DNA from: an archaeon
Lineage (GTDB): Archaea; Nanobdellota; Nanobdellia; Pacearchaeales; GW2011-AR1
DNA: 49,609 nt
NCBI GenBank assembly: GCA_018651925.1
Contig: JABIDC010000002.1
Span: 1 to 49,609, forward strand
Direction: 5' to 3'
Below, in pieces: positions 13,349 through 29,596 of the stretch. The position numbers and the translations under genes are program-made. Under the pieces are notes generated by a model. It made no database searches, was not told the DNA's origin, and worked only from the letters and a program-made list of their open reading frames with translations. Each line of letters begins with the position of its first letter. The first letter of the stretch is position 1.

Positions 13349-13912
13349 TTATTTTAATGACCAAAGCATTTTTGTGTAACCAGTATTATCAATATCTTTT
13401 TTGTTAATTTCTAATTCTTTTAATGCGGTGTTAATTAATTGTTTTGCTTTCTCTACTTCTTTTTCTTGGCATAAATATTCAATCTCTAAAAAATATCCAA
13501 GACTTTTTACCTTATGCAATTCAATTGTTAAATTTTTGTTTTTGCGATATTTGTAACTTTCAGTTATTTTTGTTTTTTCTACCCATTCTTCAAAATTTAA
13601 ATCTTTGAATAGTTCGGATAAATTTTCTATATCTTTTTTTTCTTTTATTGAAAATTCAAATTCTTTTTTTACTACAATTTCTTTATCAGATAGTTCTTTT
13701 ATCTTTTTCTTAAAATTAATTTCAAATTTATTTGGTTTTTCTCTTATTCTGAATGCTTTTTTTGGATATTTCTTTTTTAGGAGTTTATTTTTTATTGCAA
13801 AATATTTGTCGGTTCTTGTTTCTTTTTTGTCTAACTTTGCTATTGATTTAATTTTCTTTCTTAGATTTATTGGGTCTTTAACCCTTGCTTTTGTTTCTAC
13901 TTCTAACCACAT
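13349..13912 (-). CDS. CYTH-domain protein (class IV adenylate cyclase CyaB-like / triphosphate tunnel metalloenzyme)
   Basis: N-terminal ExExK (EVETK), DKYF, FRIR, K-x-T/R segment, LGYFLEIE. Confidence 0.85.
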   Translation of the reverse strand: MWLEVETKARVKDPINLRKKIKSIAKLDKKETRTDKYFAIKNKLLKKKYPKKAFRIREKPNKFEINFKKKIKELSDKEIVVKKEFEFSIKEKKDIENLSELFKDLNFEEWVEKTKITESYKYRKNKNLTIELHKVKSLGYFLEIEYLCQEKEVEKAKQLINTALKELEINKKDIDNTGYTKMLWSLK

Positions 13913-13927
13913 TTTTCTTTAAATGTA

Positions 13928-14116
13928 CGCCCCGACCGTGATTCGAACACGGGTCACTGCCGTTCTCCAAAAGAAGGTTGCATTGAGATGCATAGACTTC
14001 CTCTCTCATCGAGATTTTTTCACCTCTCTTTTGAAATTTCTTTCAAGTCGTTTTGACCTGAAACAACTTTCGTTGTTTTGAGAGGGCAGCATACTTGGCC
14101 TCTGTACTATCGGGGC
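13928..14116 (-). tRNA. tRNA-Glu(CTC) with a 116-nt intron at position 37/38 (intron 13963-14078)
   Basis: Acceptor GCCCCGA/TCGGGGC, D arm GTAC/GTAT, anticodon stem CTGCC/GGCAG with loop CT-CTC-A|C, T arm CCGTG-TTCGAAT-CACGG. BHB core: CTCT pairs with GGAG, bulges CA|A and AA|C. Exons total 73 nt. No encoded CCA. Confidence 0.93.
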
Positions 14117-14219
14117 GTGTTTTGCTCTGAAAGTACAGGGTTTACTCAGATTCAAATTATTGGGTTAATTTGGATCTTGCGAAAATATGAAGGATATTTT
14201 CAGCGTGTACTATCGGGGC
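14103..14219 (-). repeat. 14-bp direct repeat of the tRNA-Glu 5' end (14103-14116 and 14206-14219) flanking an 89-nt hairpin-rich insert
   Basis: tgtactatcggggc occurs twice, 103 nt apart. It equals tRNA nt 1-14, GCCCCGATAGTACA. Confidence 0.92.
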
Positions 14220-14241
14220 ATAATTAATTGAAAGAAAAGTG

Positions 14242-14256
14242 TTTTATAAATTTTTA
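14242..14256 (-). promoter_or_regulatory. TATA box with A-rich BRE-like run for the tRNA-Glu transcription unit
   Basis: Minus strand reads AAAAA-TTTATAAAA, ending about 23 nt before the outer 5'-end copy (14219). Confidence 0.6.
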
Positions 14257-14329
14257 TAGTCCTGCCAGGATTCGAACCTGGGTCGCGAGGCCCAGAACCT
14301 CGCATACTTGACCACTGTACTACAGGACT
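14257..14329 (-). tRNA. tRNA-Gln(CTG)
   Basis: AGTCCTG/CAGGACT acceptor with the archaeal Gln A1-U72 pair, anticodon arm CGAGG-TTCTGGG-CCTCG, T loop TTCGAAT. 73 nt, no CCA. TTTTAAAA lies about 24 nt upstream. Confidence 0.95.
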
Positions 14330-14404
14330 ATGTCCATACTTATGATTCTTTCTTTTTAAAATCTTTTTCGAAAGATTTTTATATGTTTTTAGTTTAGAAT
14401 TGTT

Positions 14405-14746
14405 ATGGTAAACGGGGTGGTTTTTCTTGTAATCTCAGCTTTGGTAATTGTAATTTGGGTTTTAATAGAGTTTAAACGTCTTGAACATAAACTTTTTGCA
14501 TATTTTTTAATAGGAATGATTTTGGTAGTTGCTGCAAGTTTTTCGGTTGTTACAAGTAATTATGATATTGATTATGGGTCTGCTTCTGGGCTAATGACTG
14601 CGGGAAAAGTTTATTTTTCTTGGATTGGTTCAGTATTTGGAAATGCTAAAACAATGACAAGCCACGCTATTAAATTAGATTGGGAAATGAATGAGAGTGT
14701 GGAGCAAGTTGATTTAAAAAAATCTTTAGCTGATTCCTTAGAATGA
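14405..14746 (+). CDS. Small membrane protein, unknown function
   Basis: Two hydrophobic helices. C-terminal ..TSHAIKLDW is shared with the next gene. Confidence 0.65.
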   Translation: MVNGVVFLVISALVIVIWVLIEFKRLEHKLFAYFLIGMILVVAASFSVVTSNYDIDYGSASGLMTAGKVYFSWIGSVFGNAKTMTSHAIKLDWEMNESVEQVDLKKSLADSLE

Positions 14747-14943
14747 AATTTTTTTCGTTCATTTTGATTTTTCTTGTTTTAAATTCGTTATTAATTATTA
14801 GTAATAATAATCTTCATTTAGAAACAGAAGAGGGAATAGATAATTTTTTAGGAGATTATTCTTTTTTTGTAGAGAAAGTTTATTCTAATGTTTTGAGAGT
14901 TACTTCAAATGTGATAAAACTTGATTGGATTGCTACAGACTAA
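14743..14943 (+). CDS. Small membrane protein, paralogue of the preceding gene
   Basis: ATGA overlap with the upstream stop, one TM, C-terminal ..TSNVIKLDW. Confidence 0.6.
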   Translation: MKFFSFILIFLVLNSLLIISNNNLHLETEEGIDNFLGDYSFFVEKVYSNVLRVTSNVIKLDWIATD

Positions 14944-14983
14944 TTGTCGGAATATTTAAATAGGTTATTTTATTGAATGAATC

Positions 14984-15349
14984 ATGGTGAAGAAAAAGAT
15001 GGTGCGCAGTTCTGCGTACTCCAAGTCGCGGAGTTCTGGAGCAAAAAAGAAGATTGTTAAATCAAAGGTTTCAAATTCTAAAGTAAATAAAAAAGTTGTA
15101 AAATCAAATAAAACTCCTAGAAAGGTTCAGATGAGAAGTGTTTTTTCAAAGTATAAATTCCATATTGCAGTTAGAGATTTAATTTTATTCTCAGTTTTAT
15201 TCTTTTTGGTGTTCTTCTTAAGGGTAATTTCAACCAATGTGATTTTAGATAATATCTTCTTCTTATTGATGATTGTTTTCGGATTCTTAGCAATTGCCTT
15301 CTTTATAGTATTTTTAATATTTATTTTTGCTAGAATTTTTAGAAAATAA
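14984..15349 (+). CDS. Membrane protein with a Lys-rich N-terminus and two C-terminal TM helices
   Basis: ORF composition. TTTAAATA lies about 21 nt upstream. Confidence 0.65.
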   Translation: MVKKKMVRSSAYSKSRSSGAKKKIVKSKVSNSKVNKKVVKSNKTPRKVQMRSVFSKYKFHIAVRDLILFSVLFFLVFFLRVISTNVILDNIFFLLMIVFGFLAIAFFIVFLIFIFARIFRK

Positions 15350-15478
15350 ATAGGTCTCAGTTGAGATTTCAATGATTGTTAATTTTCTTGGGTTTATTTG
15401 AATAATCAAGTAATTTTTAATAATTTACAGGCCGACAGATAGAAATATATTTATAAATTAAAATAATAAATTATATAG

Positions 15479-16111
15479 ATGAGAAAGCTTCTAAAAAACC
15501 CCCTAACTCCAATTGCATTATTTGCATTAATAATTTTAGCAATATTATTTTTTCCTGGACAATCTGATATTAAGAATAATTTTTGTGGGATTCATATAGA
15601 TTATCGATATTGTAAGTGTGCATTTCATAATGAATATTGTGAAAGTTTAGGAATGAGTAAAAGTGAAGCAAATTCGTTTGTTCAAGAAGAATATGAAAAA
15701 TGGAAAGATTCGCTAAATCCAACGGAATCGGAAGAAGAAGATGAAAAATATGGTATTATTGAAAAAGATGGAAACCTTTATCTTAATTCAAAGCCAGGAG
15801 AAGTGCTCGAAATAAAAACGAAGGATTTGCCAAATTGGGCTCGTGAAAAAATTGCTACAGTTGGTGCAGAAATAATGGTTGGGGGACCATTAGATCAAAT
15901 TGCAGAAGGAGATTCAAATGTTCTTTTAGATGGACTTCCAATAGCAAGAGTGGGAGACGAAACAGTTCAAGGTGGAGTAATAACTGTTGGTTCAGAAAAT
16001 ATTTTTGTTAATGGAAAACCTGTTGCAATTATTGGGGGGATGACAACAAACTCTCAATTAACAGGAACGGTTCCTCATATTGGTGGTCCAATAATAAATA
16101 ATGTTAATTAG
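15479..16111 (+). CDS. Exported or membrane-anchored PAAR-domain protein with an N-terminal Cys-rich module
   Basis: N-terminal hydrophobic helix. FCGIHIDYRYCKCAFHNEYC. PAAR-type repeats IAEGDSNVLLDGLPIARVGD and ITVGSENIFVNGKPVA, and terminal PHIGGPI. Confidence 0.8.
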   Translation: MRKLLKNPLTPIALFALIILAILFFPGQSDIKNNFCGIHIDYRYCKCAFHNEYCESLGMSKSEANSFVQEEYEKWKDSLNPTESEEEDEKYGIIEKDGNLYLNSKPGEVLEIKTKDLPNWAREKIATVGAEIMVGGPLDQIAEGDSNVLLDGLPIARVGDETVQGGVITVGSENIFVNGKPVAIIGGMTTNSQLTGTVPHIGGPIINNVN

Positions 16112-16137
16112 TTCTTATTAGATTAAGAAAATAAATA

Positions 16138-16210
16138 AGCCACAGCCGAGATTCGAACTCGGGACCTTTACATTACCAATGTAACGCTCTACCAACTGAG
16201 CCACTGCGGC
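16138..16210 (-). tRNA. tRNA-Thr(GGT)
   Basis: GCCGCAG/CTGTGGC acceptor with U73, D arm GCTC/GAGC, anticodon arm TTACA-TTGGTAA-TGTAA, T arm CCGAG-TTCGAAT-CTCGG. 73 nt. Confidence 0.95.
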
Positions 16211-16294
16211 ATTTTTGAATTAGCCACAGCGTTCAGTTTAGCACTGCTCAGTGCACCCTTAATTGCGGAGTTCTGGGGCAAGCCACTGCGGCAT
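16199..16294 (-). repeat. 14-bp direct repeat of the tRNA-Thr 5' end (16199-16212 and 16281-16294) flanking a 68-nt insert that also contains a copy of the 3' acceptor strand (16222-16230)
   Basis: agccactgcggcat occurs twice, 82 nt apart. agccacagc occurs at 16138-16146 and 16222-16230. Confidence 0.92.
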
Positions 16295-16315
16295 AAATAA
16301 TTATCTTAATTTAGA

Positions 16316-16330
16316 TTATAAAAATGTTTT
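16316..16330 (-). promoter_or_regulatory. TATA box for the tRNA-Thr unit
   Basis: Minus strand reads AAAACA-TTTTTATAA, ending 23 nt before the outer 5'-end copy (16292). Confidence 0.6.
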
Positions 16331-16367
16331 TGGGTAGTTTTATAAGTAAATTTTGTTAGTTTTTTTA

Positions 16368-16847
16368 ATGGAAAGTAATTTAGATTGTTTGAAAGAAACT
16401 TATCAAGAGATGGCGAAGGAACATAATTTGCCGGAGTTTGATTTGTTGAATGAAGATTTTGCGATTGAGAAAATTGCTGATGCTGAAACTGATTTTTTAG
16501 TTAGAGAAGTTAGAAAATGTATTAGTGAAAAATTTTCTGTTTATTTAAGGTTGGTTGAAGGCTTTTTGCATCCAGTTAATTCTCCGATGTTTGTTTATAG
16601 TTTGGTTAAAAATTTTTCTGTTAAAGATAAAGAAAATTTGGTTTCAATTTATAAAAAATTAGCTAGAAAAGAAGTAGATTTGATTGAACTTGATTTATTT
16701 TTTGATGAAAAGAAAGAATCAATTTTTATTATAAATTCTTTTAAGTTGTGGGCCGAGATTAAAGAAGATCTTTTGAAGTTAGTTAAGTCAATGAATAAGA
16801 ATTGGGATAGCGAGTTAGAAACTAACGGAAAGAATTATTTTGGATAA
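16368..16847 (+). CDS. Hypothetical helical protein
   Basis: Long ORF with typical codon usage. ATG 16368 lies about 21 nt after TTTTATAA. Confidence 0.7.
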   Translation: MESNLDCLKETYQEMAKEHNLPEFDLLNEDFAIEKIADAETDFLVREVRKCISEKFSVYLRLVEGFLHPVNSPMFVYSLVKNFSVKDKENLVSIYKKLARKEVDLIELDLFFDEKKESIFIINSFKLWAEIKEDLLKLVKSMNKNWDSELETNGKNYFG

Positions 16848-28333: not shown

Positions 28334-28687
28334 ATGGATTTAAGAAATTATTTTGGAAATTTGACTAATTATGCGGTAGAGAGATTACAAGAAACTTATG
28401 AAACAATGATTGAATCTTTTAATCTAAAGTATGCTCTCGCAGGAATTAATGGAGTAAATGTTAATTCTGGATTAGAGGGGGAAGTTAAATCTAATGGGGT
28501 TTTTCATTTTGCAAGGCGTCACGGAAAGGGAAACAAATCTAAGGGTGAAACTACTGGAACTATCTCTGTTAGAAATAGAAAAACTGGAAAAGTTATGAAT
28601 ATTCCGGACACAGAAAAAATTCCTAAGAAATATCAAAGAAATCATGTGGATAAATATGCAAATAAAAAAAATAAACCCAAATATTAA
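28334..28687 (+). CDS. Hypothetical protein with a highly basic C-terminal half
   Basis: 117-aa ORF with its own TATA (TTTATAA about 23 nt upstream), lying between lemA and htpX. Confidence 0.6.
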   Translation: MDLRNYFGNLTNYAVERLQETYETMIESFNLKYALAGINGVNVNSGLEGEVKSNGVFHFARRHGKGNKSKGETTGTISVRNRKTGKVMNIPDTEKIPKKYQRNHVDKYANKKNKPKY

Positions 28688-28711
28688 AAAGTAATTTTTC
28701 TTAATTTGCAT

Positions 28712-29596
28712 ATGAAACAAAGAGTGGATTTTCGTGATCAAATTTCTAAGAATAAAATGAAGTCTTATTTTTTGATGGTTGTTATCTTTTTTGTGATTTT
28801 AATCTTGGGATATGTTATTTCAATGGCCACTGATCCAGGGTATTTTTTTGTAATAATGATTTTTGCGATTATTTTTTCAATTAGTTATTTATTGGTGAAT
28901 TTTTATCATTCAGATAAAATTGCTTTGAAGTCTGTTGGAGCGAAAGAAGCGAAACGGATAGATTATAGAGATTATCATAATTTAGTTGAAGGACTTTGTA
29001 TTGCTAGCGGGATGCCTAAGCCAAGGCTTTATGTTATGGAGTCTTCAATGATTAATGCTTTTGCTAGTGGGAGAGATCCTGAACACGGGGTTATTTGCGT
29101 TACAAAAGGAGCTTTGGAAAAATTGGAAAGAAGAGAGCTTGAAGGAGTTTTAGCTCATGAGCTTGGACATATAGCTAGTTATGACATGCGTTATATGACG
29201 ATGGTTGCGGTTATGGTCGGAATGATTTCAATTATCTCTCAAGTTTTTCTTCGTAGTCTTTGGTTTCGGGGAAGGGGAAGTAGTAATGATTCTTCAAAAG
29301 CAATTTTTATGATAATCGGAATTGCTTTGGCAATCATTGCACCAATTGTTGTTTATTTTGTTCAGATGTCAATTTCAAGGAAGAGAGAATTTACTGCGGA
29401 TGCTTCTGCTGTTAAGTTTACAAGGTATCCTAATGGTTTGATTAAAGCTTTAGATAAAATCGGAAAAGCAAATCAATCTAATGAAAAAAAAGTGAATAAA
29501 GCCTTGGCTCCGTTGTTTTTTTCTAATCCGTTTAAGGGAGCAGGAAGGACTCATCCTCCTTTAGAAGAAAGGATAAATGTTTTGAAACGTATGTAA
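28712..29596 (+). CDS. htpX: Zinc metalloprotease HtpX (peptidase M48)
   Basis: INAFASGRDP, ELEGVLAHELGHI (HExxH), ISRKREFTAD, THPPLEERI. Confidence 0.93.
   Translation: MKQRVDFRDQISKNKMKSYFLMVVIFFVILILGYVISMATDPGYFFVIMIFAIIFSISYLLVNFYHSDKIALKSVGAKEAKRIDYRDYHNLVEGLCIASGMPKPRLYVMESSMINAFASGRDPEHGVICVTKGALEKLERRELEGVLAHELGHIASYDMRYMTMVAVMVGMISIISQVFLRSLWFRGRGSSNDSSKAIFMIIGIALAIIAPIVVYFVQMSISRKREFTADASAVKFTRYPNGLIKALDKIGKANQSNEKKVNKALAPLFFSNPFKGAGRTHPPLEERINVLKRM

Follow-up and report, generated by a model that had tools for sequence, protein, structure and literature searches.

Why should a tRNA gene be preceded by a second, partial copy of its own 5' end, and how would the cell go on expressing it? 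The question is raised by a DNA stretch of 49,609 nucleotides (hereafter the window; contig JABIDC010000002.1 of GenBank assembly GCA_018651925.1) from an archaeon of the Pacearchaeales. Within it, two tRNA genes, tRNA-Glu(CTC) and tRNA-Thr(GGT), each lie downstream of a repeat of their 5' end and of a short insert. An earlier note on this DNA had seen there either a tiny family of non-autonomous elements aimed at tRNA 5' ends or a programmed release of small RNAs from tRNA leaders. As far as comparison at the sequence level can tell, what is shown is insertion with a target-derived duplication at tRNA gene ends, with relic copies on the side of the old promoter or terminator, fast turnover and families that are private to single genomes. 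The explanation favoured here, and held to be probable, is that small non-autonomous insertion elements lodge at tRNA gene ends with a target-derived duplication, the tRNA being made from the old promoter and its leader removed by RNase P.

The window is contig C9 of its genome (G000), which comprises 640,746 bases in 12 contigs (31% G+C) and is estimated to be 86.65% complete. Like all genomes compared here, it is an incomplete metagenome bin, and the sequencing runs that contain the window stretch are marine metagenomes. G000 shows the marks of a small-genome archaeon, namely promoters of TATA type at a fixed distance from tRNA 5' ends, tRNA introns and one splicing endonuclease gene, and it also carries an archaeal RNase P RNA gene (118.4 bits).

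Both loci lie on the minus strand and share one layout. At the Glu locus, a TATA-like box (tttataaaa, 14242–14250), which would be the ancestral promoter, is separated by 22 nt from the first G of the outer copy. This outer or relic copy corresponds to nt 1–14 of the tRNA (14206–14219), marks the putative ancestral transcription start and is repeated exactly at the start of the gene (inner copy, nt +1 to +14, 14103–14116; spacing 103). Between the copies lies an insert of 89 nt (14117–14205) with two hairpins, the heptamer CTGTACT that is complementary to D-arm nt 9–15, and an A-rich tail (gcaaaacac) just before +1. The whole gene (13928–14116) was missed by the default ARAGORN and Rfam scans because of an intron of 116 nt (13963–14078). 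It was recovered by ARAGORN with introns allowed and by a scan for bulge-helix-bulge (BHB) motifs, which places the cuts of this canonical intron after 14079 and 13963, with an outer helix of 7 bp.

At the Thr locus, the TATA-like box of the ancestral promoter (tttataat, 16315–16322) again lies 22 nt from G+1 of the outer copy (16292). The outer copy consists of AT followed by nt 1–12 of the tRNA (16281–16294) and is an exact 14-nt repeat of the inner copy (nt -2 to +12, including the AT at -2/-1; 16199–16212; spacing 82), which opens the complete gene (16138–16210; ARAGORN and Rfam, 71.8 bits). The insert of 68 nt (16213–16280) is made of four parts: a 44-nt module with two hairpins that is present in other genomes too (about 16241–16282), the ten bases taaactgaac (16231–16240), a 9-nt copy of the 3' end of tRNA-Thr itself (gctgtggct, 16222–16230) and an A-rich tail (16213–16221). 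The repeats reported in the earlier note, 14 bp around inserts of 89 and 68 nt, are thus both real and exact. So is the spacing of the TATA boxes, which fits the outer copies as it fits the uninterrupted neighbour tRNA-Gln(CTG) (14257–14329, minus strand; ARAGORN and Rfam), whose tttaaaaa box is about 22–23 nt from the 5' end. No TATA box precedes the inner copies of either gene at -23 to -30, so that they must rely on the old promoter; the proposal that the insert had entered the gene, left an intact tRNA and used its promoter agrees with this absence. A complete colinear tRNA gene was found at every locus, unlike split or permuted tRNA genes, whose mature product has to be put together from separated or reordered pieces.

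The repeats are not an assembly artefact, since independent contigs from other samples span both loci. The two Glu copies and the insert are spanned with 0 differences by X3 record 1 (14087–14634) and X5 record 12 (14083–14887). X6 record 17 (13850–14217) runs through the inner Glu copy and the insert and reaches 12 nt into the 14-nt outer copy, stopping 2 nt short of its start. The Thr repeats are spanned without difference by X3 record 8 (16172–16400). Nor are the repeats due to chance: a control with reversed probes in G000 gave 0 repeats of at least 11 nt, the longest being 9 nt.

Orthologous loci in related genomes reveal which copy is the older. Uninterrupted tRNA-Glu(CTC) genes, preceded by a promoter at 22–24 nt, are found in two other genera (G015 and G016). 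The promoter of the former, aaaaatttataaaac, has the same box and the same spacing as that of the window, and the box of the latter is similar. Likewise, in G001, which belongs to the same genus as the window, the promoter region runs directly into an uninterrupted tRNA-Thr(GGT), and this region aligns at 76% with the window region upstream of the outer Thr copy; the Thr insert is absent from this genome. A 188-nt contig of a related marine organism (X5 record 11) also passes from the 5' end of tRNA-Glu (loose end at 14116) directly into promoter-like sequence. Such empty orthologous sites with the same promoter indicate that the events are insertions and that the outer copy is the ancestral start, as had been deduced earlier from the TATA spacing. 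Polymorphism extends to other tRNAs: tRNA-Met carries a 3' insert in G021 and G001 and no duplication in G000. On the evidence of these comparisons, the insertions are recent when set against the splits between genera, or even against those inside a genus. The copies that decay are shown by their base changes to be the relic ones. The outer copy of tRNA-Asn in G000 has two mismatches that break the acceptor stem, and several of the distal copies found downstream of other tRNA genes are mutated at their ends.

These observations also bear on a reading in which the outer copy is the true first exon of the tRNA, the insert together with the inner copy being spliced out as a non-canonical intron at a BHB motif. 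The lineage does have tRNA introns and a splicing endonuclease, and a correct tRNA would result if any position of the outer copy were spliced to its counterpart in the inner copy. However, at none of the 6 loci scanned was there found a motif, with two 3-nt bulges separated by 4 bp and with flanking helices, through which one repeat period would be excised, and the same scanner recovers the canonical Glu and Ile introns. Furthermore, the sole EndA gene of G000 has a frame of 176 aa, presumably the size of the homotetramer type that needs the strict motif, and the outer Asn copy would yield a mismatched acceptor stem. Splicing of this kind is therefore a hardly credible explanation.

Are the two loci isolated cases? 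All 31 tRNA genes predicted by ARAGORN in G000 (one dubious call with a 535-nt 'intron' being left out) were searched, out to a distance of 250 nt, for exact repeats of at least 11 nt of the tRNA 5' end (upstream) or 3' end (downstream). In G015, G028 and G001, the flanks of every tRNA detected with Rfam were put to the same test. In G000, four tRNAs gave matches upstream and six downstream, two of the latter six being neighbouring tRNA genes; such neighbours are excluded from all counts given here. Eight of the 31 tRNAs of G000 thus carry an end duplication. Four have it at the 5' end: Glu-CTC and Thr-GGT (14 nt each), Phe-GAA (12 nt) and Asn-GTT (16 nt exact, or 22 nt with two mismatches). 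The other four display the mirror image, in which the complete tRNA is followed by an insert and then by a copy of its 3' part, starting mostly in the T-loop: Ile-TAT (20 nt), Lys-CTT (30 nt, including 17 nt of trailer), Ile-GAT (14 nt) and Leu-TAA (19 nt). Further, decayed 3' cases (Thr-TGT, Leu-CAA and Val-TAC) were recognized in G000 by eye, as were the start points of the distal copies; because the survey used exact repeats of at least 11 nt, decayed cases are under-counted.

The pattern recurs in the relatives, at 8 of 33 tRNAs in G015 (every one in the 3' form), 6 of 26 in G028 (with both forms on two tRNAs) and 6 of 27 in G001 (the 5' form at four tRNA-Leu genes, the 3' form at Met and Phe). 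Combined, 28 of the 117 tRNA genes of the four genomes (about 24%) have a partial copy of their own end 40–210 nt away, a proportion that may overstate the lineage average, as the three relatives were picked because matches had already been seen there. Across the 28 loci, the duplication measures 12–35 nt. The inserts hold no gene and measure 40–130 nt. The affected tRNAs are almost wholly different between the congeneric G000 and G001. The scan of other tRNA genes that the earlier note had called for therefore bears out the architecture while changing its description: the length of 14 bp seen both times in the window is a coincidence within a range of 12–35 nt, and there is no specificity for 5' ends, the 3' form being at least as common.

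Two side observations concern individual tRNAs of this survey. Downstream of tRNA-Gln(CTG) in G015 (C2:62100–62480), a unit of roughly 210 nt with a copy of the tRNA 3' end (gtggggctat) occurs twice in tandem, which indicates that insertions can stack. Downstream of tRNA-Val(TAC) in G000 (C7:109900–110100), a GC-rich structured stretch lies between two ...ttttt(a/g)gcagaatctc... repeats.

The inserts themselves fall into several groups. The four 3' inserts of G000 can be aligned (alignment A1) and have a common architecture, the order being an oligo-T trailer, a stretch complementary to the T-loop, hairpin 1, hairpin 2, GCC and a tRNA copy that begins at T-loop position 56. Searches with nhmmer and a covariance model recovered exactly these four copies in G000 as a family, R1, with copies of roughly 90 nt (C2:73947–74036, C3:27123–27214, C3:56021–56111 and C5:15311–15403, directly after tRNA-Ile(TAT), Lys(CTT), Ile(GAT) and Leu(TAA), respectively). 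Its period is constant (101–104 nt) and its hairpins show compensatory changes at 10 of 24 predicted pairs. Beyond G000, six R1 matches were found in G001, G021 and G028 (3 of 60 other genomes), all of them directly 3' of a tRNA and followed by a copy of the 3' part of that tRNA. Other families with the same design are present in G015 and G028. A family of the 5' form (alignment A2, family R2) has three copies at tRNA-Leu genes of G001, with a mean column identity of 82%, always inserted after GGAGTGGTCA in the D-loop; no R2 copy was found in 36 other genomes (1 of 37 in total). Insert copies from the same genome resemble one another more than they resemble copies from other genomes. The R1 cores at tRNA-Ile(TAT) and tRNA-Leu(TAA) are 83% identical, whereas the repeats that flank them are only 39% identical, which means that the core moved between unrelated tRNAs and that the repeat is derived from the target. 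The earlier idea of a tiny element family at tRNA 5' ends thus holds for R2; it does not hold for the two window inserts, which are unlike and single-copy.

This contrast between core and repeat also bears on the possibility that the loci are scars, left by a virus or plasmid that had integrated in a tRNA gene and duplicated its attachment (att) core, and whose interior was then deleted down to attL, short ends and attR. The 3' form usually begins in the T-loop, a classic crossover site for tyrosine integrases, the variable length of the repeats would suit att identity blocks, and tyrosine recombinases (PF00589) are encoded by G021 (five) and G028 (two). Partial tRNA copies are, moreover, well known to flank integrated elements in archaea (PMC9897764 and PMC3293823). 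Yet related cores beside unrelated tRNA ends imply that the repeat is not carried by the element, and independent deletions would not be expected to yield the same succession of hairpin 1 and hairpin 2 with a constant period of 101–104 nt at four tRNAs. In addition, no tyrosine recombinase was found in G015 or G001, and no full-length element lying between distant tRNA-end copies was found in G000. Taken together, these data make an origin as scars unlikely. Distant copies of tRNA ends were also considered as marks of large elements in G000 and gave two 13-mers in coding sequence, taken as chance.

The four 5' inserts of G000 are mutually unlike, and each is single-copy in its genome. They nevertheless share one trait: CAAAA occurs within 16 nt before +1 at all four loci, compared with none of the 27 other tRNAs, and a CAAAA tail was also read by eye in both 5' inserts of G028. 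The 44-nt module of the Thr insert has a sharp homology edge exactly at the junction between repeat and insert. It is found elsewhere at sites without tRNA (three copies in G006, one in G080 and one in G167), an exact-pattern search retrieving it from 3 of 301 genomes, and one of its hairpins has a compensatory change. The Thr insert is also the only one among the 5' inserts tested that aligns significantly with its own tRNA in a transition-tolerant local alignment (value reached by 3 of 300 shuffles). For the others (Glu 59, Asn 144, Phe 122, G028-Lys 132 and G028-Leu 209 of 300), the alignment is not significant, and the candidate reading of these inserts as decayed tandem tRNA copies was rejected. 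Against Rfam 15, the inserts and their relatives gave only tRNA, 5S rRNA and chance-level matches (at the gathering threshold and at E cut-offs of 1 to 5).

Two stretches resembling the 44-nt module were noticed in passing. One of 41 nt in the window (15004–15044, plus strand), at the start of a small open reading frame (ORF), is 71% identical to the plus strand of the Thr insert (16241–16281), with which it shares gcggagttctgg; this likeness may be due to chance or may reflect a degenerate copy of the module. The other, farther downstream of tRNA-Val(TAC) of G000 than the structured stretch mentioned above, is a relative of the module (ccccaaaaatcaattatttggggtacgccgagcggcg) located just past the stop codon of a convergent gene and is terminator-like.

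What becomes of the transcript? Predicted folding of the Glu leader gives -22.3 kcal/mol, far more stable than shuffled sequences (z -5.19, 0 of 200 shuffles as stable), in a fold that pairs the relic copy with the insert's 3' part and leaves the last 7 nt single-stranded. The Thr leader is not significantly structured (z -1.20, 27 of 200 shuffles as stable), so that the description of the inserts as hairpin-rich stands statistically for Glu and not for Thr. The Glu, Thr and Phe leaders are alike in their predicted folds: the relic copy is paired to the insert's 3' part, and +1 is preceded by an A-rich tail that stays single-stranded. In Thr, the relic acceptor strand pairs with the 9-nt stretch copied from the 3' end of the tRNA itself, and a closing stem of 9 bp that resembles an acceptor stem is formed. 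The 5' insert of tRNA-Phe(GAA) would make this tRNA dependent on RNase P for the removal of a 52-nt leader. As a separate observation, the RNase P RNA gene (28675–28967, plus strand, within C10:28446–28967 of G000) stands back to back with this very tRNA gene.

Folds of this kind could suggest that the leaders and trailers are themselves the product, i.e., programmed small RNAs or processing signals useful to the host and released by RNase P or RNase Z, the duplicated end being functional. The stability of the Glu leader, the compensatory changes in the R1 hairpins, the common pairing of the relic copies ahead of a single-stranded tail and the presence of the RNase P RNA gene would all fit. 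Conversely, a host function sits badly with orthologous tRNAs of sister genomes that have no insert, with sets of affected tRNAs that differ between two species of one genus, with families private to single genomes (such as R2) and with relic copies that decay. Moreover, an oligo-T run, which is expected to act as an archaeal terminator, separates the tRNA from the element in the 3' form, and no Rfam family matches the inserts. Programmed RNAs of this sort thus appear improbable.

A further property of many of the inserts is a stretch of 7–11 nt complementary to the D- or T-loop sequence at the insertion junction. For the 3' form, 14 of 16 loci carry at +2 to +15 an 11-mer with 8–10 Watson-Crick matches to the local T-arm (G52–C62), a value reached by 0–1 of 300 shuffles. 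The base opposite R57 of the T-loop is the Watson-Crick partner of the base of the local tRNA in 13 of these 14 loci, including close pairs of elements in G000 (Ile-TAT with T:A, Leu-TAA with C:G) and in G021. Among inserts of the 5' form, those of family R2 contain GTTTGACCAC, which is complementary to the junction-spanning D-loop sequence GTGGTCAAAC (10 nt in three copies; 0–1 of 1000 shuffles). Complements at the junction are shorter in the 5' inserts of the window genome (7 nt each), being reached by 17, 42 and 44 of 1000 shuffles for Glu, Thr and Asn, respectively. As 4 of the 10 loci of the 5' form are without a junction complement, and as a broader comparison with the first 50 nt of the tRNA is not significant at any locus (55, 72, 44, 350, 140 and 464 of 500 shuffles), both of which count against the explanation favoured here, the complement at the window loci is only suggestive. 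Where it exists, this stretch would either guide the insertion or sequester the relic copy in the transcript. In the first case, the inserts might form a distinct class of guide-bearing mini-elements of less than 130 nt that find the D-loop or T-loop, the best conserved regions of tRNA genes, through a complement of 7–11 nt, enter there with a long duplication of the target by which the tRNA is restored, and are retargeted to other tRNAs by point changes in this guide. This is a tentative extension, possible though clearly less likely than the general explanation, and a host or viral enzyme would have to move such elements, since the genomes hold no recognizable transposase.

Tracking of the local tRNA by the complement also helps to weigh a fourth alternative, in which a break in a heavily transcribed tRNA gene was mended by duplicating the gene end in a short tandem and capturing filler DNA at the junction. 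The four unrelated, single-copy 5' inserts of G000 are what such repair could leave, as are the variable repeat length, the mosaic composition of the Thr insert (a module known elsewhere joined to a copy of the tRNA's own 3' end) and a genome in which no transposase was found. Captured filler would not, however, make multi-copy families with a fixed insertion point and a conserved structure, nor place a CAAAA tail at four loci out of four, nor follow the loop of each local tRNA with a complementary base. Break repair consequently has a low probability, on a par with that of programmed RNAs.

Small insertion elements with target-derived duplication, the explanation preferred here, would operate as follows. 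Short (68–89 nt), non-coding and mostly structured DNA would enter the first 12–14 bp of a tRNA gene; the target-derived duplication would re-form a complete tRNA downstream, while the original 5' end would stay as a relic at the old start. Both window loci would thus be part of a lineage-wide, quickly turning-over population of elements that lodge at the D-arm region (5' form) or mostly at the T-loop (3' form). A host or viral enzyme would mobilize the elements in trans. One cut or joint would be placed in the D-arm or T-loop, perhaps via the complementary stretch, the other at or just past the gene end, and fill-in would yield a repeat of variable length. Transcription from the relic copy would then produce a leader of 103 nt (Glu) or 82–84 nt (Thr), composed of relic, insert and A-rich tail, whose folding may hide the relic copy and whose tail may offer RNase P a single-stranded approach.

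Several results weigh against this explanation. Both window inserts are single-copy in G000, and the Glu insert has no relative in 40 other genomes at E ≤ 0.001. The search for a Cas1 without CRISPR array, a transposase or a reverse transcriptase acting in trans, which the earlier note had suggested, yielded no candidate in G000: RVT_1, Y1_Tnp (IS200-type), IS110 and Cas1 (PF01867) were not found in this assembly, which is 86.65% complete. A tyrosine recombinase was detected in only 3 of the 5 element-bearing genomes and neither in G015 (90% complete, 8 affected tRNAs) nor in G001. A duplication of 12–35 nt is also unlike the product of one transposase with a fixed stagger. Enzyme remains in G000 amount to sub-threshold fragments of TnpB and one tyrosine recombinase, truncated at a contig end. 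Pattern scans of viral contigs for carriers gave 2 chance matches in unrelated GC-rich coding sequence and 0 otherwise.

How do these inserts compare with known systems? Like MITEs (transposable elements of the miniature inverted-repeat type), they are small, non-coding and structured, are multi-copy in some genomes and do not themselves encode an enzyme. Terminal inverted repeats, a short fixed target duplication of 2–10 bp and dispersed sites characterize MITEs. Here, by contrast, the target is a tRNA end and the duplication is long and variable (12–35 nt). The 3' form seems to have inverted ends, but these are copied from the T-loop of the target. Among the window inserts, Glu has imperfect inverted ends (cgctgaaa / tttcagagc) and Thr none; both are single-copy, and R1 and R2 are multi-copy. 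An analogy, and no more, can be drawn with the integration of CRISPR spacers, in which staggered attacks on both edges of a defined segment followed by fill-in convert it into repeat-insert-repeat, as there is here no Cas1, no array and no fixed repeat length. Casposons, which the earlier note had brought into play, share a target duplication of 14–15 bp and a preference for tRNA gene ends (PMC5137440). They are nevertheless rejected as a model: no Cas1 was found in G000, the inserts of 68–89 nt contain no ORF, and the duplication of 12–35 nt is not fixed at 14–15 bp. Furthermore, the elements described here are 100 times smaller, and their insertion point lies within the 5' part or in the T-loop, not at the 3' edge.

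Elements that integrate into archaeal tRNA genes offer the closest parallels. According to PMC9897764, 44-bp repeats surround PYG1 and SSV1, and integrations of 9–23 kb are described in Thermococcaceae. As with SSV1, pNOB8-type elements and PYG1, direct repeats of part of the tRNA gene are found at both borders of the inserts, and the copy of the 3' form runs from the T-arm to the 3' end. Those elements (PMC9897764 and PMC3293823) measure 9–23 kb or 1.8 kb, encode their own integrase and have repeats of about 44 bp. The present inserts are instead non-coding, measure 40–130 nt and have target-derived repeats of 12–35 nt, and neither an integrase inside nor an att core carried by the element was found. 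In Caldiarchaeum subterraneum, a 5' fragment of tRNA-Thr(GGU) is associated with a 1.8-kb element that carries a recombinase gene and occurs in six regions, and the authors connect this element with the gain of introns and the splitting of genes (Sugahara et al. 2012, PMC3293823). The case also has in common with the Thr locus the tRNA species, the position of the 5' fragment upstream of the insertion and of a complete gene, and the polymorphism between close genomes; it differs in that the inserts here (68–89 nt) have no ORF and no link to an intron. The impression that 5'-end duplication by a small element was unfamiliar accordingly stands at the scale below 130 nt and not at the kilobase scale, for which the Caldiarchaeum case provides a precedent. 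A full-text literature search returned no description of inserts of less than 130 nt with duplicated tRNA ends, with the proviso that tables S2 and S3 of PMC9897764, on partial tRNA genes, might hold small cases. Partial tRNA copies are thus known at the kilobase scale; what sets the present cases apart is that the inserts are small and gene-less, occur at roughly one in four tRNA genes, use either end of the gene, and come with a repeat derived from the target and with a loop complement.

tRNA genes are classic landing sites of mobile DNA. Very few intermediate states have so far been seen in the origin of interrupted archaeal tRNA genes (introns and split genes). In these ultra-small genomes, fresh events of small size are numerous at either gene end, and sister genomes hold filled as well as empty sites, which makes the process directly comparable between genomes. 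If the loop complement does guide insertion, targeting would follow a new and very compact principle; should it do no more than tame the relic copy, it would show how an essential single-copy tRNA gene tolerates an insertion. In practice, annotation of tRNAs in such genomes will be misled by tRNA fragments and by long leaders, and the latter predict that RNase P is required in organisms in which the other tRNAs seem to begin at their mature 5' end or close to it.

Some minor observations concern the tRNA set of G000 and the surroundings of the two loci. Only 32 (ARAGORN) or 30 (Rfam) tRNA genes were detected in G000, with no tRNA-Ala or tRNA-Tyr and no extra T-arms; these two tRNAs are either unassembled or disrupted beyond the reach of both programs. 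On contig C5 (33409–33450, minus strand), an orphan T-arm with an acceptor 3' strand, ggcaggttcgactcctgcctgaggcg, was called by ARAGORN as the tRNA with a 535-nt intron; its matching 5' half is nowhere in the assembly, and it may represent either a 3' relic or a piece of a disrupted tRNA. In the window, the last roughly 70 nt of the tRNA-Glu(CTC) intron (13963–14078, minus strand) are 76–84% conserved in G003, G009, G015, G016 and G021, while the intron differs in length on its 5' side. This conserved stretch includes tgagagagg, which is complementary to ccctctca of the anticodon loop, and in G003 it has a gtgatga box; it is possibly an intron-borne guide RNA. On the plus strand between the Glu and Thr loci (15479–16111), a protein of 210 aa with a PAAR motif (PF05488, E 1.3e-11) is encoded, a motif that is unusual for a very small archaeal genome.

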